64,000 bases of DNA from an uncultured bacterium (GTDB lineage: Bacteria; Cyanobacteriota; Vampirovibrionia; Gastranaerophilales; Gastranaerophilaceae), in assembly GCA_902475545.1 (NCBI GenBank), contig CABRZP010000003.1, positions 72,422-136,421 of the forward strand, written 5' to 3'. The position numbers were made by a program, and so were the translations under genes. Below the pieces are notes generated by a model, which saw only the letters and a list, made by a program, of their open reading frames with translations, was not told the origin of the DNA and did not search any database. Position 1 is the first letter of the stretch. Every line of letters begins with the position of its first letter. This document shows positions 29,090 through 56,022 of this stretch, piece after piece.

Positions 29090-29653
29090 GTGGAATTAAC
29101 ACAAGACAAGATAGAGCTGATAAGTAAAATCATAAAAAACGACCGGAAGTATTCAAACAATGAAGATTTGTATGATGATTTCTTTAATGAAACATGCAAA
29201 CGTTCTGTTGGAATACTTGAGGCTGTTGATTCTGAGGCTACTCTTGAAATTTACTTAAAACGTGTTGCAACTACAGCAATTATTAATGTATTGAAAGATT
29301 CCGGAAGATTAAGACGTTCCAGAACCGGTTACATGTCAACAAAAGAAGTATCTTATGATAATACTAAAAATGATGTTGATTATTCAGATGTTGTTATTAA
29401 TTATTCAAATGTGACACTTCCTGAAACCCCTGAAGATATTGTTATCCAAAGAGATTTTCTACAATTTGTTGCTGACACGGTTAAGAAAATTAATGATCAA
29501 GAACCTGATAAAGATTATTTACATATTTATATTTTACGTTATGATAAGGGCATGACTCAGAAAGAAATATCTGATGAAATTGGTATCTCCCAGTCTGAAG
29601 TTTCCAAAAGACTTTTCAGATTGATGGAAAAAGTTAAAAATGTCATTGAGTAA
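29090..29653 (+). CDS. Divergent sigma-70/ECF-like protein (region 4 HTH clear, region 2 degenerate)
   Basis: YILRYDKGMTQKEISDEIGISQSEVSKRLFRLMEKVKN matches sigma region 4. YLKRVATTAIINVLKD resembles region 2.3/2.4. GTG start with a GGAG RBS. Confidence 0.65.
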   Translation: MELTQDKIELISKIIKNDRKYSNNEDLYDDFFNETCKRSVGILEAVDSEATLEIYLKRVATTAIINVLKDSGRLRRSRTGYMSTKEVSYDNTKNDVDYSDVVINYSNVTLPETPEDIVIQRDFLQFVADTVKKINDQEPDKDYLHIYILRYDKGMTQKEISDEIGISQSEVSKRLFRLMEKVKNVIE

Positions 29654-29665
29654 AAAGTTTAAGAT

Positions 29666-32623
29666 ATGAAATGTCCCGTATGTGAAAAAAATATTCCGGA
29701 AACAAGTTTGAGATGTCCGTATTGTAAAACTCGAACAGGTTTATTGTGTTCTCATTGTAATACAGTTAACCCTCTCGGCACTCTTTTATGCAAAAATTGC
29801 GGACATGAACTGCTTAAAATTTGCCAACATTGCGGTAGTGTGAACTTCCCCAATGCCGTAAAATGCAGAAAATGCGATTCCCTTTTAAATCCAAAAACAG
29901 AAGAAAAAATATCAGGTATAAATCCATTAGAATATAACCCTGATTTATACAGCCAAAAGCAAGCGTTTGATATTTTATCTGACGGATTAAATTCAAAAAC
30001 GCAAAAAATATTTTCTATTACAGGAGACAAAGGAATTGGTAAAACTTTTCTACTAAAACAAGTCATAAAAAGTTTTAATAAAGATAAATTCCGCTGGGGT
30101 ATCGGAGAATGCACCCCGCTTACGCAATTAACTCCCGGTGGTGTAATTCAGGCAATGCTGTTGGATTTATTCTGCCTGCCCAATTTCTGTATTAAAAATG
30201 AGGAATTTGAAACTAATGCAATTAAATTTTTCACTAATGAATTTAAATTTTTAAAACAAGATGAAATTTCTGACTTTTTAAACTTTTTATATAATTTTAA
30301 AGATGGAAACTATGAAGATATCATTATTAATAAAAAACGAACTTTTAAAATTTTAAATAAGATATTTACAGCGTTTTCAGACACCGGAAATTTTGTTTTT
30401 GTAATTGATAATTTTGATTTTATAGATGGTTTTTCAATTGAATTTCTAACAAATTTTATGCAGCATGACGAAGTTTGGAAAAACCTCAAGTTTATTGCTA
30501 TATATAACAGACATAAGCCAATAACTAATTTTTTCGGATTTGAAGATAAAGATATAAATGCGTATGTTGATATTAATCTTGCTCCGTTAACAGTTAAAGA
30601 ACTTGAAAATAACATGAAGTTAACGGGAGATTCAGGTACCTATGTAACAGAAAGAGAAAAAGAAGTTATTTTTGCTAAAAGCCATGGGAACCCTGCATTT
30701 GTAGAACAGGCTATAAGCTATTCTTTTGATTGTCAAATTTCAGATAAAGCATTTTTGATGCCTAATACTTTTTTTGAATTGATTAAAAATCGTTTAGACA
30801 CTTTGAAAAAAAATAATAATCAGGCTTACAAACTTCTTTGCGGAGCATCTGTTATTGGTAATAAATTAAATTTAGCATTATTAAAAGAAATTTTTGGATA
30901 TAAAGGACAAGAGTTTAACGATATAATGTCCTATCTTGTGAAATCAAATTTTGTTAGACCTTATAATGAAATATACTATGAATTCAATAATATTTTATTA
31001 TGGGAAACAATATTAAAAAGTCTAACCCGAAATTCGGCATTTGAAGATATAAATATAAAAATAGGAAAAGCATTAAGCGTATTTACACTAAATACAAATC
31101 CGACACTGGCTATGATTGCACACAATTTAAAAGAAACTCGAATGGCTTTTGATATTTGGACAAAGACAACACGTCTTGCCTCTTACGTCGGAGATATAAA
31201 TTTATATGTTATTTCGCAAAAACAGTGTCTTGCATTACTAAATGAATTCAATGAGAATGAAACACTGAACATTCGCTATAATATCAGTGAACGACTCGGG
31301 AAATTACTTGCTGAATACGATGCAGAAGAAGCTTTGGAATTTTTACCTGATGCTATAGCCAATGCAAAAGCTGACAATAACGAAGTAAAGGAAATTGAAC
31401 TGTTAGGGTATTTATCTCTCTGCTGCAAAAAAACAGGTAACTATTTGGGCAATGTTGAATGCGTTGATAATGTTTTAAAAAAGATGAAACCATCTCAAGA
31501 GATTGAATCAGCTCTGGTTAAAACTTCAAAATTAGAATCACTTTTAAATATCGGAAACTGCGGAGAAGTTATTAATCTTATTGATAATGACATCATGCCT
31601 GTTTTAAGTAATTATCTTGCTAAACCTAAATTAAACAAGACAATACCTCTATTATTTTTGTATGATACATGGATCAGAATTCATTTAACACTGGCTCATG
31701 CTTTAGCCCTGCAAGGTAATAACCGCTCATTTGAAATATTAAACAAATTATTTAATATTATTGAAAAACATAAAGTTAATGATTACCAGCTTCATTGTAA
31801 AGCTAAACTTGTCTTGGCATTAGCAAATACTATGCAGGGGAATTTTGAAACCTCGAACAATCTTTTAGAAGATATTGAACGAAATTATAAAGACAAAATC
31901 ATGGATGGAGAAACTATTTCCCGAATGAATTTAATTTCTATAATCAATAGATTTATGACTAAACAATATGACCAGCTTCAGGAAATATTGTTTGATGCTG
32001 TAACATTTGCAAATAATACGGGGGATAATTTTACAAAAAATATTTTGAAAGTATTGCTTGGTAAAATGTTTAAAGATGAACAAAAAGCAAAGCATGCAAT
32101 AGAAATATATAATGAACAGGTCACATACTTTGCAAAAGAGAAAATGGCATTAGGAGCGTTGCTGTCATGGTTATTAATTGCTGAAGCAGTAATGATAACT
32201 GAAACACCGAAAAATACTATTGAAATTGCAAATAATGCTCTTGAAATTGCACAAAATCCGAGAATTAATAACACATTTTTTATTGTGCATTTAAAAATGC
32301 TTTTAGCTCAAGCCTATATGGAATTATCAGACTATGAAACCGCAAAAATAAATCTTGAATCGGCAGTTATACTTGCAAAAAAATATGCAATGAACGATAC
32401 CCTTTCAAGACTTTATATGCTATTTGGAAAATATTACAGAGACTTAGGGACTGTACAATCTAACAATCAAATTGATTACTTAAAAGGAGCATTAAAAATG
32501 TTTGAAAATGCGATGTCTCTTGTTCTAAAAAATACACATAATAAATATATTCATGACCAAATAGATAAAGAGCAGAGACTTTTGCTTTCATATTGTGATG
32601 TTAATGGTTTTAAAATAGTTTAA
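29666..32623 (+). CDS. STAND-type P-loop NTPase with N-terminal multiple zinc ribbons and a C-terminal TPR-like array
   Basis: Four CxxC pairs in the first 75 aa. Walker A ITGDKGIGKTFLLK (about 30022-30045). Walker B-like FVFVIDNFDFID. Long helical-repeat C-terminus. Confidence 0.75.
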   Translation: MKCPVCEKNIPETSLRCPYCKTRTGLLCSHCNTVNPLGTLLCKNCGHELLKICQHCGSVNFPNAVKCRKCDSLLNPKTEEKISGINPLEYNPDLYSQKQAFDILSDGLNSKTQKIFSITGDKGIGKTFLLKQVIKSFNKDKFRWGIGECTPLTQLTPGGVIQAMLLDLFCLPNFCIKNEEFETNAIKFFTNEFKFLKQDEISDFLNFLYNFKDGNYEDIIINKKRTFKILNKIFTAFSDTGNFVFVIDNFDFIDGFSIEFLTNFMQHDEVWKNLKFIAIYNRHKPITNFFGFEDKDINAYVDINLAPLTVKELENNMKLTGDSGTYVTEREKEVIFAKSHGNPAFVEQAISYSFDCQISDKAFLMPNTFFELIKNRLDTLKKNNNQAYKLLCGASVIGNKLNLALLKEIFGYKGQEFNDIMSYLVKSNFVRPYNEIYYEFNNILLWETILKSLTRNSAFEDINIKIGKALSVFTLNTNPTLAMIAHNLKETRMAFDIWTKTTRLASYVGDINLYVISQKQCLALLNEFNENETLNIRYNISERLGKLLAEYDAEEALEFLPDAIANAKADNNEVKEIELLGYLSLCCKKTGNYLGNVECVDNVLKKMKPSQEIESALVKTSKLESLLNIGNCGEVINLIDNDIMPVLSNYLAKPKLNKTIPLLFLYDTWIRIHLTLAHALALQGNNRSFEILNKLFNIIEKHKVNDYQLHCKAKLVLALANTMQGNFETSNNLLEDIERNYKDKIMDGETISRMNLISIINRFMTKQYDQLQEILFDAVTFANNTGDNFTKNILKVLLGKMFKDEQKAKHAIEIYNEQVTYFAKEKMALGALLSWLLIAEAVMITETPKNTIEIANNALEIAQNPRINNTFFIVHLKMLLAQAYMELSDYETAKINLESAVILAKKYAMNDTLSRLYMLFGKYYRDLGTVQSNNQIDYLKGALKMFENAMSLVLKNTHNKYIHDQIDKEQRLLLSYCDVNGFKIV

Positions 32624-32634
32624 ATCAAAAAAAA

Positions 32635-32657
32635 GGTGTTTGAATTTACCAAACACC
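32635..32657. terminator. Bidirectional terminator hairpin
   Basis: GGTGTTTG-AATTTAC-CAAACACC with an A-run upstream, between convergent genes. Confidence 0.55.
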
Positions 32658-32684
32658 ATTACCTCTTTAATATAATGTATATCC

Positions 32685-34352
32685 TTAGATTTCAAACAAA
32701 CTGTGAAGTCTGCTTCTAATATCATCTTCATCCAGTTCGCCTGTTAATTTATTCAAATCAATTGCCATCTGATAATAATTAGCGGCATCATTTGTAAAGC
32801 CCATTTGCTGACTTGCTCTTCCTGCATTAAAATATGCAAGAGTATAATTCGGATTTAGTGCAATAGCTTCTTCGAAATATTCAAGAGCTTCTTCTGCATC
32901 TGCCAAACCATCCAGATATAATATTCCAAGATTATTTTGGGAATATTCATTCTCAGGATTCAATTCTATAGCTTTATGGTAAGCAACTAAAGCTTCTTCC
33001 AAATAGTCTTTTTCCCACAGTGCAATTCCGACTTTTGAATAAGCTCTGGCTTCATCCGGATTCAAGGTAATTGCGTCGCAATATGCCCGTATTGCTTTAT
33101 CTAAATCGTAATCTGCCATATATATATCACCAAGAGCAATATGCAAATCGTAATTTTTCGGGTCTAATATAATACCTGCTTGGTATGTCGAAACCGCAGC
33201 TTCCATGTTGCCTTTATTTTCGGCATAAATTGAACCTAAAGCCTGACATACAATTGATGTCCATTCTGCATCAGGATTTACTGAAATTGCTTTCTGATAA
33301 TGTTCAATTGCATCATCATACAATTCAGCTTTTGCATAAGCATAACCGAGAGAATTATTAAAGAACGGATTTTCCGGATCTTTTTCTACTGCAAGCTTAA
33401 ATGCACTTAACGAATTCAATTTATCTTCTTTTGATAGATATAAATGTCCTAATTCATAATAAATTTGAGCAGTATCAATATCAAATTCTAATAATTTTTC
33501 ATAACAATCAATTGCTTCTTCCGTATTTTCAGGAAAATATGTTTGCAAAATTGTAGCCAATTTTACAAGCACTTCACGATTAATAGGATTTGCCTCTAAT
33601 ACTTTTCTATAGCATTCTGCAGTTTTTTCTAAATCTTTATTTTTTAATGCCAAATCACCAATTTTATTGTAATAATATTCACTATGTGTAGTTTTGACTA
33701 TAGCATCATTGTATAATTTTTCTGCAGCATCATACATCTTACAGTTTTCATAGAATCTTCCAACTGTATTATATGAAAAGATTGAAACATCATTTGACAT
33801 GTTTTTATAGAACATTTTGATGGCAGCTCTATCCCATGCCAACATAACACTTCCTGTTATGAAATAATACAAAAATCCTGCATAGTCTTTAAATGAACTG
33901 CTTTGCGTATTGATTTTCTGTAATATTGACTGCGACAAAATCATTCTTGGTCTGCCTGAAGTCAAAGGACTCATCTTTATTGCTGACTTAAATTCTTTTT
34001 CAGCAGACGAATAATCTTGAGCTAATTGCATGAAATAACCTGTATAAAGGTGAGCATCCTTATTGTGAGGAGACAAGGAAATTGCAGTCTTACATTGCTC
34101 TATTGCAGTATTAACACTAATCTGCCCCTGTTCCCACATCAATGTAGCTAACCTGTAATAAGTTTCAGGTATTGTAGGGTCATACTTAACCGTATCTACA
34201 TAGTGTTCAATTGCCTCTTGTAAATCGTTATTTCTCTGACCAATTAAATATTTCTCATGAGCAAGTCTTGCTTTTTCAAGAGAATCTATAGCCTTTTCCT
34301 TATTTTCTATATTGTTTGTGCCAATCATTGGCATTAAAACTTGTTCTGACAT
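32685..34352 (-). CDS. TPR repeat protein
   Basis: 555 aa with many 34-residue repeats of the A..Y..AI.L.P pattern (for example AIEHYQKAISVNPDAEW, AYHKAIELNPENEY, YFEEAIALNPNYTLAYFN). Confidence 0.85.
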   Translation of the reverse strand: MSEQVLMPMIGTNNIENKEKAIDSLEKARLAHEKYLIGQRNNDLQEAIEHYVDTVKYDPTIPETYYRLATLMWEQGQISVNTAIEQCKTAISLSPHNKDAHLYTGYFMQLAQDYSSAEKEFKSAIKMSPLTSGRPRMILSQSILQKINTQSSSFKDYAGFLYYFITGSVMLAWDRAAIKMFYKNMSNDVSIFSYNTVGRFYENCKMYDAAEKLYNDAIVKTTHSEYYYNKIGDLALKNKDLEKTAECYRKVLEANPINREVLVKLATILQTYFPENTEEAIDCYEKLLEFDIDTAQIYYELGHLYLSKEDKLNSLSAFKLAVEKDPENPFFNNSLGYAYAKAELYDDAIEHYQKAISVNPDAEWTSIVCQALGSIYAENKGNMEAAVSTYQAGIILDPKNYDLHIALGDIYMADYDLDKAIRAYCDAITLNPDEARAYSKVGIALWEKDYLEEALVAYHKAIELNPENEYSQNNLGILYLDGLADAEEALEYFEEAIALNPNYTLAYFNAGRASQQMGFTNDAANYYQMAIDLNKLTGELDEDDIRSRLHSLFEI

Positions 34353-34486
34353 TTTGAAGCTCCAATATACTAGGGATGCATAATGAGTCGATTATAAATT
34401 TTATATCTTTAACATTTTATAAAAAATCTCCTCCATTTGTATTAGATAAGAGAATAAATTTCAAATACCTACTTCTCAACATAATA

Positions 34487-34513
34487 AAAAGACTGCCACT
34501 CCGGCAGTCTTTT
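34487..34513 (-). terminator. Terminator hairpin after the BI-1 family gene
   Basis: AAAAGACTGCC-ACTCC-GGCAGTCTTTT. Confidence 0.6.
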
Positions 34514-34539
34514 AAAATAGTATATCTATATATTTATTA

Positions 34540-35286
34540 CTAATTATTTCGACTTGAAATTTTAGCTAAAAGATTGAGTATTTCAATATACATCCAAATA
34601 ATTGTAACTAATAAAGAAAATCCAAAATACCATTCGTAATTTTTATTAAATTGTCCTGAAAATTTTTCAATATTATCAAAATCAATTATTAAATTAAATG
34701 ATGCAACAGCTACGACAACCAGACTAAAGCCTATTCCGATAGGACTATTAGAAAAAATTGCAGGAATAGAAATATGGAAAAAGCTTAAAATTAACTGAAG
34801 CATGTAAATACAAAAAATTGCAAACGTAGAATTAAAAATAACCATTTTAAAAGTTTCAGTAGCTCTAACCAATTTTGTTTTATATAAAAAGAACATGCCG
34901 AATAAAGCAAACATAGTGCCAATAGCAGCCTGCGAAGCAACTCCGGGATAAATTTTATTAATTAAAGCCGAAATATATCCCAGCATTAAACCTTCACACA
35001 TTGCATACAATGGAGTTGTTATAATTAATGATTGATTTTTAGGTGCAAAACAAATAATTAATGCAAGAATTAAACCTCCAAATAATCCGCCATGATAAAG
35101 CAATATAGCTTTATCAGCATATCCCGATAATAAAAGACCCCATGAATACACAAAGGTCAAGGCTGTAAATAAACCCAGAACACATGTTTTTAAAATTGTA
35201 CCGTTTATTGTCATTACATGTTGAGTTTCTAAACTATCAACAGAAGAAGATTTTAACATTCTATCTCCAAAAGTAGGGTTTGGCAT
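34540..35286 (-). CDS. Bax inhibitor-1 / YccA family membrane protein
   Basis: 248 aa with about 7 TM segments. Size, topology and the charged C-terminal end are typical of the BI-1 family. Confidence 0.7.
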   Translation of the reverse strand: MPNPTFGDRMLKSSSVDSLETQHVMTINGTILKTCVLGLFTALTFVYSWGLLLSGYADKAILLYHGGLFGGLILALIICFAPKNQSLIITTPLYAMCEGLMLGYISALINKIYPGVASQAAIGTMFALFGMFFLYKTKLVRATETFKMVIFNSTFAIFCIYMLQLILSFFHISIPAIFSNSPIGIGFSLVVVAVASFNLIIDFDNIEKFSGQFNKNYEWYFGFSLLVTIIWMYIEILNLLAKISSRNN

Positions 35287-35383
35287 ATAAAGCTCCTTTC
35301 TTAAAACATATCCATTAATTTATGGATATAATAACATATAAAACACAAATCTCAATTCTCAAAAAAAAATTTTAAAAAAGTAC

Positions 35384-35410
35384 TTTACAATATATTTTTT
35401 TTGTTATAAA
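35384..35410 (+). promoter_or_regulatory. Candidate promoter for tRNA-Asn (TTTACA, then extended -10 TGTTATAAA)
   Basis: TTTACA at 35384-35389 and TGnTATAAA at 35402-35410, 12 nt before the mature tRNA 5' end. The 15-nt spacer is short. Confidence 0.35.
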
Positions 35411-35422
35411 CTAAAGACATAA

Positions 35423-35494
35423 TCCTCAGTAGCTCAATGGCGGAGCATTCGACTGTTAATCGAAGGGTTGCTGGTTCGAGTCCAGCCTGGGGAG
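35423..35494 (+). tRNA. tRNA-Asn (anticodon GTT)
   Basis: Hand-folded cloverleaf. Acceptor TCCTCAG/CTGGGGA (one G-U pair), D stem GCTC/GAGC, anticodon stem TTCGA/TCGAA with loop CTGTTAA, T arm GCTGG-TTCGAGT-CCAGC. CCA is not encoded. Confidence 0.9.
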
Positions 35495-35510
35495 TATTTT
35501 TTTGGAATTA

Positions 35511-35543
35511 GCCGTTTTTGTGATATAACAAAACGGCTTTTTA
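35511..35543 (+). terminator. Terminator after tRNA-Asn
   Basis: GCCGTTTT..AAAACGGC stem followed by TTTTTAT. Confidence 0.6.
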
Positions 35544-35546
35544 TAT

Positions 35547-35815
35547 GTCCAGTGTACGTTTTCACTGTAATTTTTCACCTCAGTGTATTTGTACGGTTAA
35601 AACGATTATTTTCGGCATAATCGCCTGTGTGTCGGCATATTTGGGGTAGGAAGCAACCTACGAATAATCATTTCCACAGTCCGAAAAGTCCATTTTTTGA
35701 GCCTACAAGTCCGATAAGTTCCTTTTAGTGTCCTAATTCTGTCCACGCAAGGGTTTTAGTCGTTTTGCTCCTTTTCGGGATTTTGTACACTTGAGATTAT
35801 TATTCGTGGGTTGGG
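35547..35815 (+). repeat. Cluster of short direct and inverted repeats resembling a transposon end (multiple transposase-binding sites)
   Basis: CAGTGTA twice (about 35550 and 35581). TCGGCATA twice. AGTCCGAAAAGTCC (35678-35691) and AGTCCGATAAGTTCC (35708-35722). Inverted pair CTACGAATAAT (35658-35668) and ATTATTCGTGG (35799-35809). Confidence 0.45.
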
Positions 35816-36024
35816 CGAAATAAAAAAACTAAGATTTTTAAATTAAATTTTTTCTAAGGTCGGAAGATTTTTTATTAAGGTAGGAATAAAATTAATTGTT
35901 CGGTTTTAAAAATTATTTTATTTTTTCAAACAAAATAATTTTAAATTTTCAAAGACACAAAACAACACAATGGTCGGAAATGATGTTCCAATGCTTTGTC
36001 TTTAGAGGTAAGGTGTTTCGTACC

Positions 36025-36528
36025 ATGAAAGACATATATATTAATATAAATAAGGTGGCGGAAGCCAAAGGATTAAAAAGAACTCGCTCAATAAGAATGG
36101 CAATTAATAATGGGAAATATCAAGCAAGGAAAATCTCTGTTAATGGCGGCTTTTCTTATGAAATATTGTATTCAAGTTTAGAAATTGAAATCCAAGAAAA
36201 ACTTGAAGATGAAGAAATTAAATCAACGGCACTTGTTCCGATGAATAATCAAAGACCGACATTTGTTTCAGAGAGTGCAAAAATGACATCTTTAGAAAGG
36301 GCAGATATTGTTGTTGCACTAAATAATATTCAAAAGAGGTATAAAACTAAAAAAGAGGCAGAGTCCATATTTTTAGATTTGTATAATTCGGGAATGTTGT
36401 TACCTGCTATATATAAATATATAGGAAGCATTTCAATCGGTACATTGCATCGTTGGGTTAAGGCTTATGAAGATAATGGGGCAAAAGCATTAATCCCTCA
36501 ACGCAAATGTTCAACATTAACAGAATAA
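36025..36528 (+). pseudogene. Truncated transposase N-terminal fragment (Mu/Tn7 TnsB/Tn552-like HTH region only)
   Basis: Ends with SISIGTLHRWVKAYEDNGAKALIPQRK, the HTH plus G..aL.P.. signature that precedes the rve catalytic core in Mu-like, TnsB and IS481-type transposases. No DDE core follows. Confidence 0.5.
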
Positions 36529-36654
36529 ATAATTATTACATAAAATTATTGAAAAGATATGTAACAAAAATTATTGCCAATGAAATTATCAAAAATTGCT
36601 TGTTTTATATAATATATCAGTTAAAAATACTGACTTTATGTTCATTTAGAATGG

Positions 36655-36686
36655 AAAGGGGCGAAGAGCCCCTTTCTTCTTTTTTA
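36655..36686. terminator. Terminator hairpin
   Basis: AAAGGGGC-GAAGA-GCCCCTTT followed by CTTCTTTTTT. Abuts the stop of the minus-strand gene at 36694. Confidence 0.65.
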
Positions 36687-36693
36687 GTTATAT

Positions 36694-37254
36694 TTAAAAA
36701 ATTTCTTCAACCATTTTTTGTAATAATTCCGAAATATCTTGTACGGTAGTAATCTGCTTATCTTTAATAACAGTCTGAAATTTTTCAGAATTTATTTCAT
36801 TCATATGAATTAGCCTTTTATATGTATTAAGATGAGGCGGAAGAGGACGATTGGCAATAGATTCTCTATTAAAAATTTGTTTAAATTTAACCATAAGATC
36901 TAACTTTTTGCTAAACATAAATTTCTTTAATGAATTTAAATCTTCCATGCCTGTAAAAATCCAACCATCTGTATCTCTCAAATCCGGTAATTTAATTCCA
37001 TGATTTTTAGCATTTAACAAAAGCCATTCATACGAACAACTCTCCATTTTAGCACCTTCTCCCAAAGTTTCGACAAAAGCTGCTTCATACGGATTATGCC
37101 CTATAAAACAATAACCTGGCTCCTGTTTTAATAGTGAGTGCACCGGAAGTACAGAATCCTTAAAATCTTTGATAACTTTACTATTTGTATGAGGTAATCT
37201 GTAAATTGCTGAAAATTTAATATTTCTATTGTTATTTCTATTATTTATTTGCAT
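36694..37254 (-). CDS. Hypothetical protein
   Basis: 186-aa ORF. N-rich N-terminus MQINNRNNNRNIKFSAIYRL. No recognised domain. Confidence 0.6.
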   Translation of the reverse strand: MQINNRNNNRNIKFSAIYRLPHTNSKVIKDFKDSVLPVHSLLKQEPGYCFIGHNPYEAAFVETLGEGAKMESCSYEWLLLNAKNHGIKLPDLRDTDGWIFTGMEDLNSLKKFMFSKKLDLMVKFKQIFNRESIANRPLPPHLNTYKRLIHMNEINSEKFQTVIKDKQITTVQDISELLQKMVEEIF

Positions 37255-37329
37255 AATTTTTTTCCTTATATAAGTTTTAAATCCGGGGAAAAAATTTTTT
37301 GCTAAGTTGGAGTTAATAATTTATGAAGT

Positions 37330-37357
37330 TTGACTTTATACCTTTAAATACTATAAT
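37330..37357 (+). promoter_or_regulatory. Near-consensus sigma-70 promoter (TTGACT-16 nt-TATAAT) immediately upstream of hisS
   Basis: -35 at 37330-37335 and -10 at 37352-37357. The hisS ATG starts 7 nt after the -10 element, and no Shine-Dalgarno sequence lies between them. Confidence 0.55.
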
Positions 37358-37363
37358 TTTTTT

Positions 37364-38605
37364 ATGGCTAACATTATTAAAGTATTAAAAGGAACAAAAG
37401 ATATTTTGCCGCAAGATATTGATATGTGGCATTTACTGGAAGAAAAAGCAAATCAAGTTTTTTCTAAATATGGATTTAAAGAAATCAGAACCCCGATAAT
37501 TGAAGTTACTGAACTTTTTTCACGTGGTGTTGGTGATACAACAGATATTGTTAATAAAGAAATGTACACATTTGAAAAAAGTGACCGTTCAATTACATTA
37601 AGACCTGAAAATACAGCAGGAGTAGTTCGTTCATATATCGAAAACGGTATGTCCAGACTGTCTTCTCCTGTAAAACTATGGTACAAAGGTCCGATGTTCC
37701 GTTATGAAAGACCACAGGCAGGAAGACAAAGACAATTCCATCAAGTTGGTGTCGAAATGTTTGGAATTAAAGATGCTACTGCGGATGCGGAAGTTATCCT
37801 TATGGCTGTTAATTACTTAAAAGCACTCGGACTTAATGATTTGGAAGTAGAATTAAATTCTTTAGGATGTCCAAAATGCCGTGACGAATTTAAATCTAAA
37901 CTAAAAGCAGTTTTAAAGCCTTATTTTAACGAATTATGTGAAGACTGCCAAAACAGATATGAAAAAAATCCTTTAAGACTATTAGATTGTAAAGTTGAAG
38001 ATTGTAAAAAGATTTTTGAGAAACCGGAAATTCAAGAAGTTATCAATTCTGATTTTATATGCGAAGATTGTGCTCATCATTATTCAGAATTAAAATTATA
38101 TCTGGATAAAATGGGTGTAAAATATAATGAGAACAAACTTCTTGTAAGAGGTTTAGATTATTATAACCGTACAGTTTTTGAAATCAAATCCAACAATCTT
38201 GGTTCTCAAAATGCAGTATGCGGAGGCGGAAGATATGATGGATTAGTCGGACAGCTTGGCGGAGAACCTACTCCTGCAGTTGGATTTGCAATGGGAATGG
38301 AAAGATTAATTTCATTATTGCCGGCTAAAGAAACAAAAAAATTGGATGGTTACATCGTTTCGAATTACCCGGTAGATGCATTTGTTCTTGCTGAAGAACT
38401 AAGAAGTCAAGGATTAAATGTTGAATTTGATTTAGCTAATAAGAAATTTACAAAACAATTGGAAAAAGCTTCTAAAGTTGCAAAATATGCATTTATACTC
38501 GGAGAAGATGAAATTCTTAAAAATCAAATTTCAATAAAAAATCTTGAACTTGGTAAACAAATAACTGTAGACAGAGCAAATTGCACAAAAATGATTGAAA
38601 TTTAA
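37364..38605 (+). CDS. hisS: Histidine--tRNA ligase
   Basis: Class II motifs: GTKDILP, LRPENTAGVVR, YKGPMFRYERPQAGRQRQFHQ, GGGRYDGL. Confidence 0.96.
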   Translation: MANIIKVLKGTKDILPQDIDMWHLLEEKANQVFSKYGFKEIRTPIIEVTELFSRGVGDTTDIVNKEMYTFEKSDRSITLRPENTAGVVRSYIENGMSRLSSPVKLWYKGPMFRYERPQAGRQRQFHQVGVEMFGIKDATADAEVILMAVNYLKALGLNDLEVELNSLGCPKCRDEFKSKLKAVLKPYFNELCEDCQNRYEKNPLRLLDCKVEDCKKIFEKPEIQEVINSDFICEDCAHHYSELKLYLDKMGVKYNENKLLVRGLDYYNRTVFEIKSNNLGSQNAVCGGGRYDGLVGQLGGEPTPAVGFAMGMERLISLLPAKETKKLDGYIVSNYPVDAFVLAEELRSQGLNVEFDLANKKFTKQLEKASKVAKYAFILGEDEILKNQISIKNLELGKQITVDRANCTKMIEI

Positions 38606-38924: not shown

Positions 38925-39164
38925 AATACCTCTTTTTAAAGAGTTTAATTTATGCTGACAAAAATTAAAACTATATAATTTATAGTCTATATTGACATAA
39001 ATCTATATTTAATGTAATTAATCATATATAAAAATAGAATATCGACCATAAATTCTATTTTTAATATAGAAAAATTTTAAATTACGATTGTGGATATACC
39101 TAACCGGATAAGTTCATTTCAAATTCACAAAGTAATGTAAACAAATATAATAAAGGTGAATAGA

Positions 39165-40013
39165 ATGGATAAGATTAAAGTTTCAATAATTATACCAGTG
39201 TACAATGTAGAAAAATATCTTGCAAAATGCTTAGATAGTATTATTAACCAAACATTAAAAGATATTGAAATTATATGCGTAAATGACGGTTCTACTGATA
39301 ATTCACTCGAAATTTTGACAGATTATGCAATATCAGACTCAAGAGTTATTATAATTAATCAAAAAAATGCAGGATTATCTGCGGCACGAAATACAGGAAT
39401 AGATGCAGCAACAGGAGAATATATCGGATTTGTAGATTCTGACGACTGGGTTGATACCAATTTTTATGAAAATTTATATAATGAAGCTGTTAATAATCAA
39501 TGTGATATTGCTGTTGCAGGAATAATACGGCATTATAAACAACAAAACATTTATGATTTGAAATTTATAAATTCTCAAATCTCTGATAATTTAAATTCGA
39601 AATTTAAACTCTCTGACACACCTGATTGTTCGTATGTTTGGAATAAAATTTATAAAACTGCAAAAATAAAAGAACATAACTTAAAATTCCCTGTTGGAAA
39701 ATATTATGAAGATCAGTATTTTACCCCTTTGGCTTTTTTGAAATCTGACAAGCTGATTACTGTTCCAGAAATATTTTACCATTACCGCAGGCATTCAAAT
39801 TCAATTGTAAAAAAGACAAAAAATAATGAAAAGTTATTAAGAGATAGCGTTGAGGCAAAAACTTTTATAAGTAATTTTATTTCAAAATATAATATAAATA
39901 TTTCTCACAAAAAACAAGAAAAAAAATATAAAATATTTGGACTAACAATTTTAAAAACAATAAAAAAAGAAAATAAACAAAAAAATATTTTATTAAATTG
40001 TATAGAGTGGTAA
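39165..40013 (+). CDS. Family 2 glycosyltransferase
   Basis: VSIIIPVYNVEKYLAKCLDSIINQTLKDIEIICVNDGSTDNS...FVDSDD are canonical GT2 motifs. The ORF track opens at GTG 39156. Confidence 0.9.
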   Translation: MDKIKVSIIIPVYNVEKYLAKCLDSIINQTLKDIEIICVNDGSTDNSLEILTDYAISDSRVIIINQKNAGLSAARNTGIDAATGEYIGFVDSDDWVDTNFYENLYNEAVNNQCDIAVAGIIRHYKQQNIYDLKFINSQISDNLNSKFKLSDTPDCSYVWNKIYKTAKIKEHNLKFPVGKYYEDQYFTPLAFLKSDKLITVPEIFYHYRRHSNSIVKKTKNNEKLLRDSVEAKTFISNFISKYNINISHKKQEKKYKIFGLTILKTIKKENKQKNILLNCIEW

Positions 40014-40025
40014 GGGAGAAATAGA

Positions 40026-40811
40026 ATGATTCCAAAAATAATTCACTACGTATGGGTTGGAGACAAACCTAAGTCAGATTTGGTTTTAAAATGTATTGAT
40101 AGTTGGAAAAAGTTTTGTCCCGATTACGAAATTATCGAATGGGGTAATGATAAAATAAAAGACTTTGATAATTTATATTTACAACAGGCTTTTGAGAATA
40201 AAAAATGGGCATTTGTATCTGATTATATAAGATTGCATGCCCTAAAACATTATGGTGGATTATATTTTGATACAGATTTAGAAATCACAAATTCGTTGGA
40301 CAAATTTTTAAATTTGCAATTTTTCAGCGGTTTTGAAGATTATCATGGTGTATACTCTCCCATTACTGCAATTATGGGTGCCGAAAGAGATCAAAAAATT
40401 ATTTGTGATTTATTAGATGAATATAAAAATATTCCATTTATAAAAAATGGGGTTTGTAATCAAACAACAAACACTGCACGAATAACTAAATATTTTGAAA
40501 AGAATTTCAATATTTCGTCTCCTTACAATCCCAATGAAACTATTAAATTGACAGATGAATGTATAATATACCCGTCATATTATTTTTGTGTTCCTCAAAA
40601 TAATAAACAAAACTATTCAATTCATCATTTTAACGGTTCATGGCTTGATGCATATAAAAGAACGATTATTTTTTCAGTTGGAAACTATAGAATTGCAAAA
40701 TTCAGCAAACGAAAAAATGAACCGGAGGCAGCATTACCTCTGCTCAAAAATGAAAAAATCCTATTTCAATTTAGATTTCTAAAATATAAAATCTGCCTGA
40801 TAAAATACTAA
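40026..40811 (+). CDS. GT32-type glycosyltransferase (sugar-binding DXD family, OCH1/MIPC-like)
   Basis: IPKIIHYVWVG, FVSDYIRLHALKHYGGLYFDTDLE (DXD motif DTD). Confidence 0.85.
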   Translation: MIPKIIHYVWVGDKPKSDLVLKCIDSWKKFCPDYEIIEWGNDKIKDFDNLYLQQAFENKKWAFVSDYIRLHALKHYGGLYFDTDLEITNSLDKFLNLQFFSGFEDYHGVYSPITAIMGAERDQKIICDLLDEYKNIPFIKNGVCNQTTNTARITKYFEKNFNISSPYNPNETIKLTDECIIYPSYYFCVPQNNKQNYSIHHFNGSWLDAYKRTIIFSVGNYRIAKFSKRKNEPEAALPLLKNEKILFQFRFLKYKICLIKY

Positions 40812-51301: not shown

Positions 51302-51360
51302 TCTAAAGCAAGGATTTATATACATGTTTACACCAAATATGTTCTAAACGTAGACATAAT

Positions 51361-51426
51361 GTCATTCCGAAATTGTTTCGGAATCTCATGGATGTTAGAC
51401 CCTGAAACAAGTTCAGGGTGACAGTT
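51361..51426. repeat. Double-hairpin dispersed repeat, copy B
   Basis: ATTCCGAAATTGTTTCGGAAT (51364-51384) and ACCCTGAAACAAGTTCAGGGT (51399-51419). Shares GTYATYCYGAA..TTCRGRATCTC and TTCAGRRTGACA strings with copy A at 20881-20960. Confidence 0.6.
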
Positions 51427-51517
51427 TTGGCAAATTTCAGTGTAAAGTTGTATATAAGTTCTCTAAATCAGGGCTTGTTTTTCATATATTGGAGTGCTAT
51501 CATAAAGTTATTAACAA

Positions 51518-51588
51518 TCCCGGATCGTCTAGTGGCAGGACGAAAGATTCTGGCTCTTTTAACGGTGGTTCGAATCCATCTCCGGGAG
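51518..51588 (+). tRNA. tRNA-Gln (anticodon CTG)
   Basis: Hand-folded. Acceptor TCCCGGA/TCCGGGA (U1-A72 as in bacterial tRNA-Gln), anticodon stem AAAGA/TCTTT with loop TTCTGGC, T arm GGTGG-TTCGAAT-CCATC. Confidence 0.85.
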
Positions 51589-51593
51589 AATTT

Positions 51594-51615
51594 AAAGACA
51601 CTTTTAGGTGTCTTT
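51594..51615 (+). terminator. Terminator-like hairpin after tRNA-Gln
   Basis: AAAGACAC-TTTTA-GGTGTCTTT. Confidence 0.55.
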
Positions 51616-51736
51616 CTTAGTATGGAGAGTCTTCGAACACAGAAAGTTTTTCGTATAACTCAAAACTTTCGTGGTTTTACCCTCGAAGGGTACCCTCATC
51701 AGTAAGGCTCGTGCTTCTCGCCAACTGCTGAGCTGA

Positions 51737-51752
51737 AATCCATCTCCGGGAG
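51737..51752 (+). repeat. 16-bp direct repeat of the tRNA-Gln 3' end (att-like scar)
   Basis: AATCCATCTCCGGGAG at 51737-51752 is identical to 51573-51588 (T-loop and acceptor 3' strand of tRNA-Gln). Confidence 0.7.
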
Positions 51753-51863
51753 TTTTTAAGATTTTAGCTTGATATTATATCTTCAAATAATCAGCAAATC
51801 TATTTCCATAAAAGTTCCTGAAAAATAATTTATTATAAAATATTCTTTTGCTATACTTATATT

Positions 51864-52397
51864 ATGGGAATTTCACCAAACATAAATCAATATATTGAAA
51901 AATCTAAATTGAACGGCAAACTATGCAAATGGAATAAAAGTATTGTTAATATTTTTATAACCCCTATTTCTGCTCCAATTACTAATAAAAACTTTTACTA
52001 TTCCGAGATAGAACGAGCAATTTCTCTCTGGAACAAAACCTTAAAACAATGTTGTATTAATGTACAATTTAATTTGATAACAAATGCAGCCGGTGCAGAT
52101 ATTGTTATTCATTGGACAAAAGTCGGAAGAGTCTTTGAAGGAATGTGCAAGTATCCTTCAATTATTAATGGTGAATTTCGTAAAATTTCTATTGATATTG
52201 GTTTGCAAAACGAATTTTCAGGTAAAAACACTACTGATGAAAGTATATTTTTTGTAATAATGCATGAACTCGGACACTCTCTTGGATTAGGACATGGGAT
52301 AGATATAGATGATTTAATGTTCGTACCTCATCAAAAAAATATCGTTCAACCATCAGAAAATGACTTATATGTTTTAAAAACGATTTACAATATTTAA
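51864..52397 (+). CDS. Matrixin-like zinc metalloprotease (peptidase M10 type HExxHxxGxxH)
   Basis: FFVIMHELGHSLGLGHGIDIDDLMF contains the full HEXXHXXGXXH motif and a Met-turn candidate. No obvious signal peptide. Confidence 0.75.
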   Translation: MGISPNINQYIEKSKLNGKLCKWNKSIVNIFITPISAPITNKNFYYSEIERAISLWNKTLKQCCINVQFNLITNAAGADIVIHWTKVGRVFEGMCKYPSIINGEFRKISIDIGLQNEFSGKNTTDESIFFVIMHELGHSLGLGHGIDIDDLMFVPHQKNIVQPSENDLYVLKTIYNI

Positions 52398-52475
52398 CCC
52401 CCCTGTTTTGTTTGTGATAATATAAGTTTGTCTACGGATAAAAATTTTATTTTGAAATAAGGGAAAGAGTTTAAT

Positions 52476-53474
52476 ATGGGATTAATAGTATCGGATGAGA
52501 AAGCGAAAAAATCTTTTATTAGTAAAGATGAAGAGGGTCTCCACTATATATTTAACATTTTGGGCTTAAAAATAACTATTTCTAATTTTACAAAAGCTGA
52601 TAGAATTAAAATTATTCTTCATAAACAAAATGATGTTGCTGATTATTTGATACATAATTATATAAATAAGTATTTGAATAATTATATTCCGAAAATAGAA
52701 GTTAAAACGAAAAAAGATTTAAAAACAGATAAAATCATATGGCAATATTGGGGACAAGGCTTTGAAAATCTGCCTGAAGTAGTTAAGGTATGTTATAAAT
52801 CTGTAGACAGATATAAAAATGATTATATAGTTATTAGATTAACAGATGATACTATTGATGAGTATATAGATATTCCTGATTTTATTTATAAAAAGTTTAA
52901 AGAAAATAATAGTTTTAAAAGAGCATTTTTTTCTGATATAATAAGGCTTTATTTGTTGTCTGCTTATGGTGGAATTTGGATTGATTCAACAATTTACCTA
53001 ACAGAACCTATTCCAAACAATTTATCAAATAAAGATTTTTTTATGTTTCAACGGGATTTAAATGAAACAAATCCTGAGTTTTGGGTAAAACAGGATTATA
53101 GATATTTTGGCTTTACGAAAGATTTTAAAGTTAATTCTTTGAATAGCTTTATGATATCAAAACCTCAAAACTTATTAATAAACGCATTGAAAGATATACT
53201 TACCCAGTATTGGAAAGATGAAGATTTTTTCCAATATTACTATTTATTTCAAATATTATTTAATGAATTGATAAATACTCCGGAATATAAAAATTTAAAT
53301 TGTGAAATTATTAGTGATACGTTGCCACATTTATTGCAGGTATACAGAAATAATAAATACTCCGAACAATTATGGAATAAAATAAAAAAATCAAGTTTTA
53401 TGCATAAATTAAAATATTATTCAAAATGCAAAAAGAACTCAATATTAGAGAAAATTATACAGGGAGAAGACTAA
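52476..53474 (+). CDS. Capsular polysaccharide synthesis / GT32-like glycosyltransferase
   Basis: IIWQYWGQG and FFSDIIRLYLLSAYGGIWIDSTIYL fit the Caps_synth / Gly_transf_sug pattern. Confidence 0.75.
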   Translation: MGLIVSDEKAKKSFISKDEEGLHYIFNILGLKITISNFTKADRIKIILHKQNDVADYLIHNYINKYLNNYIPKIEVKTKKDLKTDKIIWQYWGQGFENLPEVVKVCYKSVDRYKNDYIVIRLTDDTIDEYIDIPDFIYKKFKENNSFKRAFFSDIIRLYLLSAYGGIWIDSTIYLTEPIPNNLSNKDFFMFQRDLNETNPEFWVKQDYRYFGFTKDFKVNSLNSFMISKPQNLLINALKDILTQYWKDEDFFQYYYLFQILFNELINTPEYKNLNCEIISDTLPHLLQVYRNNKYSEQLWNKIKKSSFMHKLKYYSKCKKNSILEKIIQGED

Positions 53475-54329
53475 ATGAAAATAGCTGTTTTATATATTGC
53501 AACCGGTAGATATAGTATATTTTGGGATGATTTCTATACATCTTGTGAAAATTATTTTCTAAAGAAACATGAAAAAACATATTTTGTTTTTACTGATGAT
53601 GAAAATATTAAAGACAAAGAAAATATAAGAAAGATTTATCAAAAAAAATTAGGTTGGCCTTATGACACAATGATGCGTTTTGATATGTTTTTAACACTGG
53701 AAAAAGAATTAATAGATTACGATTATATTTTCTTTTTTAATGCAAATACAAAATTTTTATCTGATGTAAATGAAGAAATACTACCGGATGAAGCACACGA
53801 TGGACTTGCCACCGCATCGCATCATGCATTTTATGATAAAAATCCGGATGACTATACATATGACAGAAATCCACTTTCAACAGCTTATATACCTTTTGGA
53901 GAAGGAAGTCATTATGCCACCGGAGCACTGAATGGAGGAATAAGTAAAAATTATTTAGATATGTGTAAAAAATGCAGCGAAAATGTTCACACTGATTTGG
54001 ATAATAATGTAATTGCATTATGGCATGATGAAAGTCATTTAAATAAGTATTTATTAGATAAAAACCCTCTTATTATGCCGGTTAATTATTTGTATCCGGA
54101 AACATCAAAAAAAAGAAGTAAATGGAACAAACCGAATGAGTTTAGCAAAGATATAAAAATACTTTCTGTAGATAAGACAAAACCTCAATATGGCGGGCAT
54201 GATTACTTAAGAGGAGCAGAAAATAATAGTTTTCTTAAAAATATTTTTTCTATATATGACTCTACTAAAGGCAATCATAAAATATTAAGAATATTCGGTC
54301 TTAAAATTAGTTTTAAATCTCCAAAATAG
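53475..54329 (+). CDS. Family 6 glycosyltransferase (histo-blood-group A/B transferase homolog, bacterial NXN type)
   Basis: TYDRNPLSTAYIPFGEGSHYATGALNGG and VIALWHDESHLNKYLL align with mammalian GTA/GTB [25 protein letters not shown] and IEAVWHDESHLNKYLL. N89-A90-N91 (53739-53747) replaces the DXD motif. Confidence 0.88.
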   Translation: MKIAVLYIATGRYSIFWDDFYTSCENYFLKKHEKTYFVFTDDENIKDKENIRKIYQKKLGWPYDTMMRFDMFLTLEKELIDYDYIFFFNANTKFLSDVNEEILPDEAHDGLATASHHAFYDKNPDDYTYDRNPLSTAYIPFGEGSHYATGALNGGISKNYLDMCKKCSENVHTDLDNNVIALWHDESHLNKYLLDKNPLIMPVNYLYPETSKKRSKWNKPNEFSKDIKILSVDKTKPQYGGHDYLRGAENNSFLKNIFSIYDSTKGNHKILRIFGLKISFKSPK

Positions 54330-54338
54330 TCTAAATTT

Positions 54339-55052
54339 TTAAAAACGATTTACAATATCTAGATATTTAAAATCAAGATTACCGCCGCAACGACCAATAC
54401 CATCTTGGGTTACATCTATGGAATATGCACCCAATTCTGCAGCCTTCAAGCTGTTTTGTAATGCAAATCCGGAATTATTATGACCATGAAAGCTTATTTT
54501 TTCAAATCCTAATATTTTTAATTTATTGAAATATTTTTCAGTTTCATCAGGAGTAATTGTTCCGTAACTATCTGCAAAATATAAACTTTCAAGGATACTT
54601 TTTTTATCCCAGCTATACAAATTTATATAACCATCTGCACCTACATTGGAAATGTCCATTAATTGTACAAAAACTTTATAATTTCGTTCATATAAGAATT
54701 CAGCGATATTAAGAGTATCTTGAATTCTGTCAGGATGACAAGCAACACGAACAAAGTCAATAAAATCATTATTTACTCCAGAAAAATCTTTTTCTGAAAA
54801 TCTCTTTGTATCAACCATAACTCCAAGTTGCAACTGTCCTTTAGCTCGGTAAAAAGTTTCTAACATTTCCGGCGTACAATTGTAAAAACGTCCTTTATTA
54901 TCAGTATCATAATGATTTCTATAACCAATTTCATAATAACTCACGTTATAATTATTTAGTTTTTCCATTAGAGAGAGGACAAATTTATCATCAAATTCCC
55001 AGTTAGTAGTATGTCCGCCATCTCTGGTTGTACAATCTAAAATTTTTACCAT
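54339..55052 (-). CDS. HMGL-like / DRE-TIM aldolase-family protein
   Basis: VKILDCTTRDGGHTTNWEF is the pyruvate-carboxyltransferase / 4-hydroxy-2-oxovalerate-aldolase type N-terminal motif. HGHNN appears later in the protein. Confidence 0.7.
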   Translation of the reverse strand: MVKILDCTTRDGGHTTNWEFDDKFVLSLMEKLNNYNVSYYEIGYRNHYDTDNKGRFYNCTPEMLETFYRAKGQLQLGVMVDTKRFSEKDFSGVNNDFIDFVRVACHPDRIQDTLNIAEFLYERNYKVFVQLMDISNVGADGYINLYSWDKKSILESLYFADSYGTITPDETEKYFNKLKILGFEKISFHGHNNSGFALQNSLKAAELGAYSIDVTQDGIGRCGGNLDFKYLDIVNRF

Positions 55053-55164
55053 AGCTGTATTTTATCATAAATTATTAAATCTTTTTACTAAATGATGTAC
55101 CTGATTGGATAATTTATTTTGATTTTTTGAAAGATAACATGAATTTAGTTGAGAGGAGTATTTT

Positions 55165-56022
55165 ATGAAAACTAATATTTATCAATCACAAGTTGTTAAT
55201 ATGCAATCACTTAATAATTTATTTATAGAATTGACTGCGAAATCATGTAATCAACATTGCAAACATTGTTATATAGATTTTCCACAATATAGCAAAGTTA
55301 ATGATTACATTAGCACAGATACTGTAAAAAAAGCTTTAGATGATACAATAAATGAAAACATTGAATGCATATATCTTACCGGAGCAGAACCAATGACTCA
55401 TCCTGATTTTAACACAATTTTAAGATTATGCTTAAAACGTTCTAATGTCTGTATTTGCACTAATGGCTCATTCATCAATGAAAAAAAAGCACGATTTTTA
55501 AAAAAAGTTGAGGATGAATCATCAAATGAAATTATTTTTAAACTTAGCTTAGATCATTATGAAGAGATAAAAAACGATGATATAAGATACCGAGGAGCAT
55601 TCAGACAAGCCGTATTCGCAATTAAACATTTGTGCAAATACAGCTTTAATCCAATCATTACTGTTACAAACTACTATAATTTATCAGAACAGGACATTTT
55701 TGAAGGTTTCGGTGTACTTTTTAAAAATATGAAATTAGACTTAGACAGTTCAAATATCCAAATTAACCGCTGGCACGATAAAAACTCACAGATTGACGAA
55801 AATTTATCTGAGAAATGGGAAAGTTTAGATTGTGAAAATGGTAGAATTTTAACAGCTACAGGAGTTTATACCTGCCCGTTTTTAGCAAATGATTATCGAG
55901 GACGTTGCGGCAGCAGTTTTGAAGATTATACAAAAAGAAGTTCGTTAGAAACGAACTTCTGTAATACCTGTATTAAATCTAAAAAACAATTATTCGGAAT
56001 AGATTTTTCAAAATTTGAATAA
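55165..56022 (+). CDS. Radical SAM enzyme with a Cys-rich C-terminal (SPASM/Twitch-like) region
   Basis: CNQHCKHCY (CX3CX2C), GAEPMTHPDF. C-terminal cysteines: CENGRILTATGVYTCPF...CGSS...CNTC. Confidence 0.8.
   Translation: MKTNIYQSQVVNMQSLNNLFIELTAKSCNQHCKHCYIDFPQYSKVNDYISTDTVKKALDDTINENIECIYLTGAEPMTHPDFNTILRLCLKRSNVCICTNGSFINEKKARFLKKVEDESSNEIIFKLSLDHYEEIKNDDIRYRGAFRQAVFAIKHLCKYSFNPIITVTNYYNLSEQDIFEGFGVLFKNMKLDLDSSNIQINRWHDKNSQIDENLSEKWESLDCENGRILTATGVYTCPFLANDYRGRCGSSFEDYTKRSSLETNFCNTCIKSKKQLFGIDFSKFE

Follow-up and report, generated by a model that had tools for sequence, protein, structure and literature searches.

Bacterial glycosyltransferases of family 6 (GT6) make host-like glycans and are believed to influence the natural antibodies against A, B, and α-Gal structures. 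BoGT6a from Bacteroides ovatus (PDB 4AYJ, 4AYL, 4CJ8, 4CJB, and 4CJC) is metal-independent and makes the A antigen from UDP-GalNAc and 2′-fucosyllactose; its Glu192 is the key catalytic residue (PMC3516806), and two C-terminal cationic residues, Lys231 and Arg243, substitute for a metal in binding the UDP diphosphate (PMC3961637). The B-type Gal transferase WbnI from Escherichia coli O86 and the A-type GalNAc transferase BgtA from Helicobacter mustelae are further bacterial GT6 enzymes of the NXN type. Both belong to LPS O-antigen synthesis, where they act after a GT11 enzyme of the same genome, and we compare them here by description only. Bacterial NXN enzymes have a C-terminal basic-hydrophobic-basic (BHB) membrane-association domain (PMC3516806). 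The vertebrate members of the family, including human GTA and GTB and bovine α3GalT, are metal-dependent.

A GT6 Gene in a Nonphotosynthetic Cyanobacterial Relative

The window (the whole stretch of DNA that was analyzed; 64,000 nucleotides, about 31% GC) belongs to a genome of 1.93 Mb in 34 contigs that is 97.8% complete. No photosynthetic reaction-center protein was found in this genome, and the control cyanobacterium gave a match; the host is a nonphotosynthetic cyanobacterial relative of the Melainabacteria group. Its MurA shares a 90% identity cluster with a protein assigned to Cyanobacteria bacterium SIG26, which NCBI places in the Cyanobacteriota/Melainabacteria group. A gut habitat has indirect support, from one relative's contig recorded as gut.metagenome. 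The gene under study and its catalytic domain are placed as follows.

53475 to 54329, forward strand: GT6 open reading frame, 284 aa, ATG start
53475 to 54212, forward strand: GT6 catalytic domain with GT-A fold, residues 1 through 246, aligned to BoGT6a residues 1 through 243

Competing frames of note are absent, the opposite strand is rich in stop codons, and the gene is apparently intact. A preliminary description, made from the DNA letters, had proposed that the 284-aa product is a GT6 enzyme with an ABO-like core, and profile and structure searches bear this out. The protein matches PF03414 (Glyco_transf_6; 116.8 bits, E = 1.1e-33; Pfam cutoff 25 bits) and NF041524 ("family 6 glucosyltransferase"; 292.3 bits; NCBIfam cutoff 250 bits), passing both cutoffs. 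Its best PDB sequence match is BoGT6a (4ayj, E = 5.3e-64, over residues 1 through 246), and the human ABO transferases and bovine α3GalT are matched at E values of about 1e-23. An AlphaFold2 model, calculated with an input alignment of 41 homologs, has a mean pLDDT of 93.7; its best Foldseek match is again BoGT6a (4cj8_E; target-normalized TM score 0.92, rmsd 1.6 Å, 45% identity), and GTA, GTB, and α3GalT follow with TM scores of about 0.70 to 0.72 and 25 to 28% identity. The motif TYDRNPLSTAYIPFGEGSHY, quoted earlier as matching the human ABO enzyme, is paired in the same way in the PDB alignment, as is ALWHDESHLNKYLL with AVWHDESHLNKYLL. The conserved motifs are thus retained on a proper alignment and the GT6 assignment stands. 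The gene is real and encodes a bacterial relative of the ABO enzymes, of the metal-independent type already described.

Compared with the vertebrate enzymes, the protein shares the WHDESHLNKY and TY(D/E)R..S.AYIP blocks and differs in having NXN in place of DXD, in the absence of an N-terminal anchor or stem, and in the presence of a C-terminal tail instead. Compared with BoGT6a, it shares the NAN motif, the catalytic Glu, the diphosphate-binding Lys and Arg near the C terminus, and an overall plan in which a minimal catalytic domain at the N terminus leads into a basic-hydrophobic tail; it differs in having two short extra segments, of 6 and 4 residues, ahead of the C-terminal lid and in several substrate-site residues (see below).

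Distribution and Phylogeny

The preliminary description held GT6 to be rare in bacteria, which is contradicted by the searches: 1,621 cluster representatives are homologous at E ≤ 1e-5 (the best 120 all carry PF03414), a curated NCBIfam model exists, and a GT6 is encoded in 12 of the 401 genomes sampled from its class. All 12 fall in the family of the query, where they are spread over 9 of 136 genera. GT6 genes of this family (for instance in genomes G030, G034, G144, G452, and G060) are 36 to 58% identical to the query. They differ from it in their donor triads (M-G-G, Q-G-A, P-G-G, or H-S-G), often in their metal-site motif (N-G-T or N-I-N), and in usually adjoining genes for GT11, Gmd, or Fcl; in G060 the GT6 is fused to GT11.

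A maximum-likelihood tree built from 123 catalytic domains places the query in a four-member clade (SH-aLRT 99) with a 99% identical conspecific copy and two proteins of 73 and 69% identity. All four have the donor triad T-G-A, which occurs in 20 of the 123 sequences. BoGT6a belongs to a different, large, and well-separated group of the tree. The combination of T-G-A with Ser at the position of BoGT6a residue 228 is found in the query and its nearest relatives (P0002 through P0009, P0013, and P0024), and also in the GT6 genes of six further loci (L013, L027, L044, L046, L048, and L049). We found no mention of GT6 together with Melainabacteria in the searchable literature, and the gene is therefore a member from a lineage in which the family had not been discussed there.

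Active Site and Donor Triad

BoGT6a residues named in the structural papers (PMC3516806, PMC3961637) were placed on the 123-sequence alignment, which locates the following features.

53739 to 53747, forward strand: NXN motif N89-A90-N91, over ABO D211-V212-D213 and BoGT6a N95-A96-N97
54021 to 54032, forward strand: W183-H184-D185-E186 block, E186 being equivalent to BoGT6a E192 and GTA E303
53919 to 53927, forward strand: donor triad T149-G150-A151, equivalent to GTA L266-G267-G268, GTB M-G-A, and BoGT6a A155-G156-G157
Change relative to BoGT6a: N69 to D64, Asp being the commonest residue of that column
Change relative to BoGT6a: G124 to A118, acceptor site
Change relative to BoGT6a: I228 to S231, acceptor site

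The ABO and BoGT6a alignments agree with the earlier placement of Asn89-Ala90-Asn91 (in FFFNANTKF) at the DVD site; with this motif present and BoGT6a as the closest match, the assignment to the bacterial NXN type also holds. The first Asn of the motif never varies among 122 homologs, 116 of which also have Asn at its third position; the Asp and Glu of the W-H-D-E block are invariant among the same 122. Equivalents of the BoGT6a residues are retained across the domain (I8, T10, Y13, T65, R68, N89, A90, N91, H116, K122, T128, Y147, G150, W183, H184, D185, E186, K234, and R246), and K234 and R246 are the counterparts of BoGT6a K231 and R243. The known mechanism of the family is left unchanged by this case.

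In the donor region the hand alignment of the preliminary description was one residue out of register. The corrected pairing sets Y147-A148-T149-G150-A151-L-N-G-G against Y-Y-L266-G267-G268-F-F-G-G. Its statement that the donor could not be called from this region nevertheless holds for the corrected register, as T-G-A matches neither the GTA, the GTB, nor the BoGT6a pattern. Set against the characterized A-type (LGG and AGG) and B-type (MGA) triads, T-G-A has Ala at position 268 as GTB does; its residue at position 266 is small, the counterparts being Leu in GTA, Met in GTB, and His in α3GalT. Among the patterns that have been studied, the closest is that of the GTA double mutant L266G/G268A, which is cisAB by its label (PDB 3zgf and 3v0m). 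A reading of Ala151 alone as specifying UDP-Gal was dropped: Thr149 is smaller than the Leu and Met of GTA and GTB, and the Gly-Gly-Ala mutant has dual specificity (cisAB) according to its PDB label. Because of this small residue and this precedent we make no donor call, and UDP-Gal, UDP-GalNAc, or both are possible.

The acceptor pocket, lined by His116 and the small residues Ala118 and Ser231, aligns with that of the fucosyl-acceptor enzymes and differs from that of α3GalT, where the three positions are occupied by Gln, Trp, and Trp (PMC3516806). From this alignment, a galactose substituted at the 2-position would therefore be accepted. The T-G-A triad combined with Ser231 occurs in no characterized enzyme; the protein is an ordinary further member of the known NXN clade with an uncharacterized specificity signature.

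A Putative Membrane-Association Tail

The protein begins at its first β-strand, without a leader, and ends in a segment beyond the range that matches the BoGT6a catalytic construct (residues 1 through 246).

54213 to 54326, forward strand: C-terminal basic-hydrophobic tail GAENNSFLKNIFSIYDSTKGNHKILRIFGLKISFKSPK, residues 247 through 284

This tail contains seven Lys or Arg residues against two Asp or Glu, with hydrophobic residues alternating, and is modeled by AlphaFold2 as a helix and three short strands (pLDDT 57 to 81). Comparable tails are present in most GT6 homologs. Judged from its composition and position, the segment looks like the BHB membrane-association domain of the bacterial NXN clade. 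A hidden Markov model (HMM) of the tail motif matches the N termini of three further proteins of the same genome. One is the product of the gene directly upstream of GT6, a Caps_synth protein (residues 17 through 36, E = 1.2e-4); the other two are a LicD-family protein and a TagF-like phosphotransferase, whose genes lie directly downstream of galE on contig C11. The motif thus seems to be a common tether for the organism's surface-glycan enzymes, a reading we infer from its distribution.

A Two-Gene Cassette

The upstream partner gene and a pair of direct repeats, detected by an exact repeat search, define the surroundings of the GT6 gene.

52476 to 53474, forward strand: Caps_synth/GT32-like partner, 332 aa, with DXD sugar-binding region; PF05704 and PF04488
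52372 to 52393, no strand: left copy of the 22-bp direct repeat TTTTAAAAACGATTTACAATAT, containing the last matrixin codons
54337 to 54358, no strand: right copy of the 22-bp direct repeat TTTTAAAAACGATTTACAATAT, containing the last codons of a convergent HMGL-like gene

The partner matches PF05704 (E = 1.5e-71) and PF04488 (E = 8.8e-8), and neither an NCBIfam family nor a solved relative was found for it. The N-terminal stretch that resembles the GT6 tail motif (about residues 17 through 36) reads GLHYIFNILGLKITIS. The partner stop codon TAA (53472 to 53474) directly abuts the GT6 ATG, and GGGAGAAG lies 7 to 14 nt upstream of that ATG; this arrangement suggests that GT6 is translationally coupled to its partner.

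Together the two genes form a cassette of 1.95 kb with a GC content of 25.9%, compared with 31.5% for the window. The closest relative (genome G017) lacks window positions 52388 to 54338 while having the same gene order and flanking proteins of 86 to 96% identity; it has one copy of the 22-bp repeat, at the point where the tails of the convergent matrixin and HMGL-like genes overlap. The two copies in our genome keep both flanking gene ends intact. The cassette is present, with the GT6 reading frame intact, in each of the 24 conspecific contigs read, which came from several sample sets, and this type of GT6 was not found in any other searched genome of the genus. Gain of the cassette in the lineage of this species is therefore the more economical reading, the alternative being loss via the repeat.

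Two other readings of the neighborhood were rejected. The cassette is not part of a tRNA-Gln-integrated island: the tRNA 3′ end is repeated as a 16-bp sequence, the two copies enclose no more than 148 bp and are situated 620 bp upstream of the cassette, on the far side of the matrixin gene, and the segment of tRNA plus repeat is also found in G017, which itself lacks the cassette. The downstream HMGL-like and radical-SAM genes are not part of a glycan cluster, as six of eight fetched genomes of the genus have both next to pilO, pilMN, and nadA, and the glycosyltransferase genes are present in none of the eight.

A recently acquired gene might also be a mere passenger, silent or inactive. The cassette is low in GC and without a recognizable strong promoter or terminator, its count of promoter-like sites is not above that of shuffled sequence, and differences within the species are too few to reveal selection (0 to 4 per gene pair, too few to show purifying selection by dN/dS). 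Set against this are the intact frame in all 24 conspecific contigs, the conservation of every mapped catalytic residue, and the tight coupling of GT6 to the partner gene, and we regard a silent or inactive passenger as very improbable indeed.

The pairing recurs elsewhere. Locus L013 encodes, in order, GT8, GT2, a double Caps_synth protein, a GT6 of 73% identity, GalE, and RmlA, and L027/L028 encodes GT25, GT25, GT11, a GT25-methyltransferase-Caps_synth fusion, a GT6 of 52 to 53% identity, and GT10; in both, the Caps_synth and GT6 genes abut. The GC content of L027/L028 is 43%, so it comes from an unrelated organism. Other close GT6 genes of the T-G-A type are solitary, without a Caps_synth neighbor: a TPR gene precedes some of them, another is next to dnaA and a transposase gene of the IS200 type, and a further one has outer-membrane-factor genes on both sides. 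On several of these contigs the flanking genes are 50 to 80% identical to genes of our genome, so that the T-G-A-type GT6 travels as a tiny unit among these bacteria.

Fucose Genes and the Acceptor

The preliminary description had envisaged an A/B/Forssman-like terminal glycan, which would be host mimicry in a gut organism, and had proposed a search for a fucosyltransferase elsewhere in the genome. Neither GT11 (the α-1,2-fucosyltransferase family, PF01531) nor GT10 gave a match in the 34 contigs of this 97.8%-complete genome, and tblastn with the GT11 proteins of sister genomes also found none. For the GDP-mannose dehydratase Gmd, the best score against TIGR01472 in this genome was 48.9 bits (cutoff 415), on galE, with nothing above the threshold; the Gmd and Fcl (GDP-fucose synthase) proteins of sister genomes retrieved only GalE by tblastn, at 22 to 25% identity. 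The fucokinase/pyrophosphorylase Fkp (PF07959) had no match in the genome. GalE and RmlA are present. As a control, the GT11 model was positive in 3 of 61 genomes of the genus and 36 of 401 of the class, next to Gmd or Fcl. This sets our organism apart from B. ovatus as the source of BoGT6a, and from the hosts of WbnI and BgtA as described, in that fucose machinery, including the GT11 that precedes those two enzymes, was not found in the query genome.

A true A or B antigen requires a Fuc-α1,2-Gal acceptor, and since the fucose genes were not found such a product is unlikely in this organism; a nonfucosylated cap, α-Gal-like or Forssman-like, is possible, so that the findings speak neither for nor against host mimicry. 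Could the enzyme nonetheless be a genuine A or B histo-blood-group synthase that uses Fuc-α1,2-Gal, as BoGT6a, BgtA, and WbnI do? Fucosylation would then stem from a fucosyltransferase and nucleotide-sugar route that escaped recognition, from genes located in the 2% of the genome that is unassembled, or from host-derived fucosylated glycans. The acceptor residues fit (H116, A118, and S231 against H122, G124, and I228 of BoGT6a), GT11 occurs in 9 of the 12 GT6-positive genomes of the class sample, often within 0 to 3 kb of GT6, and at L027/L028 a GT6 of the T-G-A type shares its locus with GT11 and GT10. However, the three GT6-positive genomes without GT11 (our own, G000, with G249 and G286) all have the T-G-A/Ser type, a descriptive observation as these kin are not independent, and among the Melainabacteria no gene of this type was observed beside fucose genes. 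The protein also lacks a signal peptide and therefore would not act on extracellular host glycans. Taken with the five gene products not found (GT11, GT10, Gmd, Fcl, and Fkp), these points make a blood-group synthase distinctly improbable.

A further alternative is a different substituent on the acceptor galactose. Either the GT32-like partner or a rhamnosyltransferase may attach a sugar other than fucose to its 2-position, to give a branched epitope with the shape of A or B and free of fucose. The Caps_synth-GT6 pair occurs in three separate contexts, the 2′-pocket is open (A118 and S231), and RmlA is encoded in the genome and, together with GalE, downstream of the pair at L013. On the other side, the partner has no characterized close relative, and close GT6 genes of the T-G-A type also stand alone, without a Caps_synth neighbor. 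We consider a 2-substituted acceptor of this kind rather unlikely, if less so than a fucosylated one.

Proposed Function

The best overall explanation, which we hold to be quite probable, is that the gene encodes an active, metal-independent NXN enzyme, expressed from a coupled cassette and held at the membrane, that adds a nonfucosylated α-Gal(NAc) cap. By homology, the enzyme would be a retaining α-1,3-galactosyl or N-acetylgalactosaminyl transferase. Its GT-A domain (residues 1 through 246) would bind UDP-Gal or UDP-GalNAc, with Asn89, Lys234, and Arg246 taking the role that Mn2+ has in the mammalian enzymes and with Glu186 as the key catalytic residue, and the sugar would be transferred to O-3 of a β-linked Gal(NAc). 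The tail (residues 247 through 284) may anchor the enzyme to the inner membrane on its cytoplasmic side, the place at which lipid-linked precursors of surface glycans are assembled. GT6 and its GT32-like partner would have been acquired jointly, as a cassette inserted between two convergent core genes. With GalE present and a GDP-fucose route and fucosyltransferase not found, the product would most likely be an LPS- or capsule-type glycan that bears a nonfucosylated α-Gal(NAc) cap, α-Gal-like or Forssman-like. Counter to a fucose-free product are the pocket formed by H116, A118, and S231, which is of the fucose-tolerant type, the T-G-A/Ser-type GT6 two genes from GT11 in L027/L028, and the use of Fuc-α1,2-Gal acceptors by all three characterized NXN enzymes, BoGT6a, BgtA, and WbnI; in addition, a fucose locus might have escaped an assembly of 34 contigs and 97.8% completeness.

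In a broader and rather doubtful form, the proposal is that the T-G-A/Ser type of GT6, alone or with the GT32-like partner, may be a fucose-independent capping module that travels as a one- or two-gene mobile cassette and places terminal α-Gal (Gal-α1,3-Gal-like) or Forssman-like structures on the surface of gut Melainabacteria. As none of the fucose genes sought was found in the genome, this GT6 is a convenient candidate for learning what NXN-type enzymes do where the H antigen is lacking. The presence/absence polymorphism, together with the 22-bp duplication, indicates that surface-glycan genes travel as very small cassettes. If the capping module is real, an uncultured and widespread gut lineage would be an unrecognized source of antigens that drive natural anti-Gal or anti-Forssman antibodies.

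Genomic neighborhood of the GT6 cassette

The HMGL-like and radical-SAM genes immediately downstream of the glycosyltransferase cassette were considered as members of a glycan cluster and rejected; they are core neighbors that are conserved without it. Of eight genomes of the genus that were compared, six have both genes adjoining pilO, pilMN, and nadA, and the cassette is absent from all eight. Upstream, the window and its closest relative (G017), which lacks the cassette, share tRNA-Gln and a 16-bp repeat of the tRNA 3' end; the window has an additional ∼160 bp ahead of tRNA-Gln (51303-51463, the double-hairpin repeat). In G017, an additional 2.1 kb, which includes a 494-aa ORF, separates the tRNA-Gln region from the matrixin gene.

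Window 51303-51776 (L019 in G017): region compared between the two genomes
Window 51573-51588 and 51737-51752: 16-bp repeat of the tRNA-Gln 3' end
Window 54339-56022: HMGL-like and radical-SAM genes

GT6 domain architecture in related genomes

A lone GT6 of the same T-G-A type, 69% identical to that of the window, lies on a related gut contig (L031), where its neighbors are dnaA and a transposase gene of the IS200 type (Y1_Tnp). In G060, a genome of the same order, a GT6 domain (motif N-G-T, triad M-G-G) and a GT11 α-1,2-fucosyltransferase-like domain, the latter 45% identical to the GT11 of genome G034, are in frame within a single ORF, which would be a natural fusion of an H-type step with an A/B-type step. 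The C-terminal extension of a GT6 in genome G400 looks like the beginning of a GT2 domain; the start of a GT11 gene is found ∼350 bp downstream.

L031:1716-2225: T-G-A-type GT6 with IS200-type (Y1_Tnp) neighbor
L004:1501-3156 (G060): GT6-GT11 fusion ORF, 551 aa
L055:1465-2631 (G400): GT6 with C-terminal extension, 388 aa

A ∼30-residue motif (..IFSI.....HK.I.I.GIKI.I.K) is found at the C terminus of the window GT6 (54213-54326) and is N-terminal in its Caps_synth neighbor (52524-52583), as well as in two proteins encoded on C11 of the same genome, one of the LicD family and the other a TagF-like phosphotransferase. In relatives (L007, L008, and L013), GT2 and unclassified transferases carry it at their ends. 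The motif is probably a portable membrane tether, the basic-hydrophobic-basic (BHB) domain of the GT6 literature.

C11:30718-31704: motif-bearing LicD-family protein
C11:31697-32971: motif-bearing TagF-like phosphotransferase

Glycan loci elsewhere in the genome

Glycan genes of this genome are dispersed as mini-cassettes. A further small glycosyltransferase pair in the window (39156-40811) is flanked by hisS/HTH genes and glyoxalase/murA genes.

Window 39156-40013: GT2
Window 40026-40811: GT32-like/Gly_transf_sug protein

The C11 locus (29490-38256) encodes GalE, LicD, the TagF-like CDP-alditol phosphotransferase, an IspD/TarI-like cytidylyltransferase, a Zn-dependent dehydrogenase, an epimerase-like protein, a polysaccharide pyruvyl transferase, and an ABC exporter; this gene content suggests a surface polymer containing ribitol- or glycerol-phosphate.
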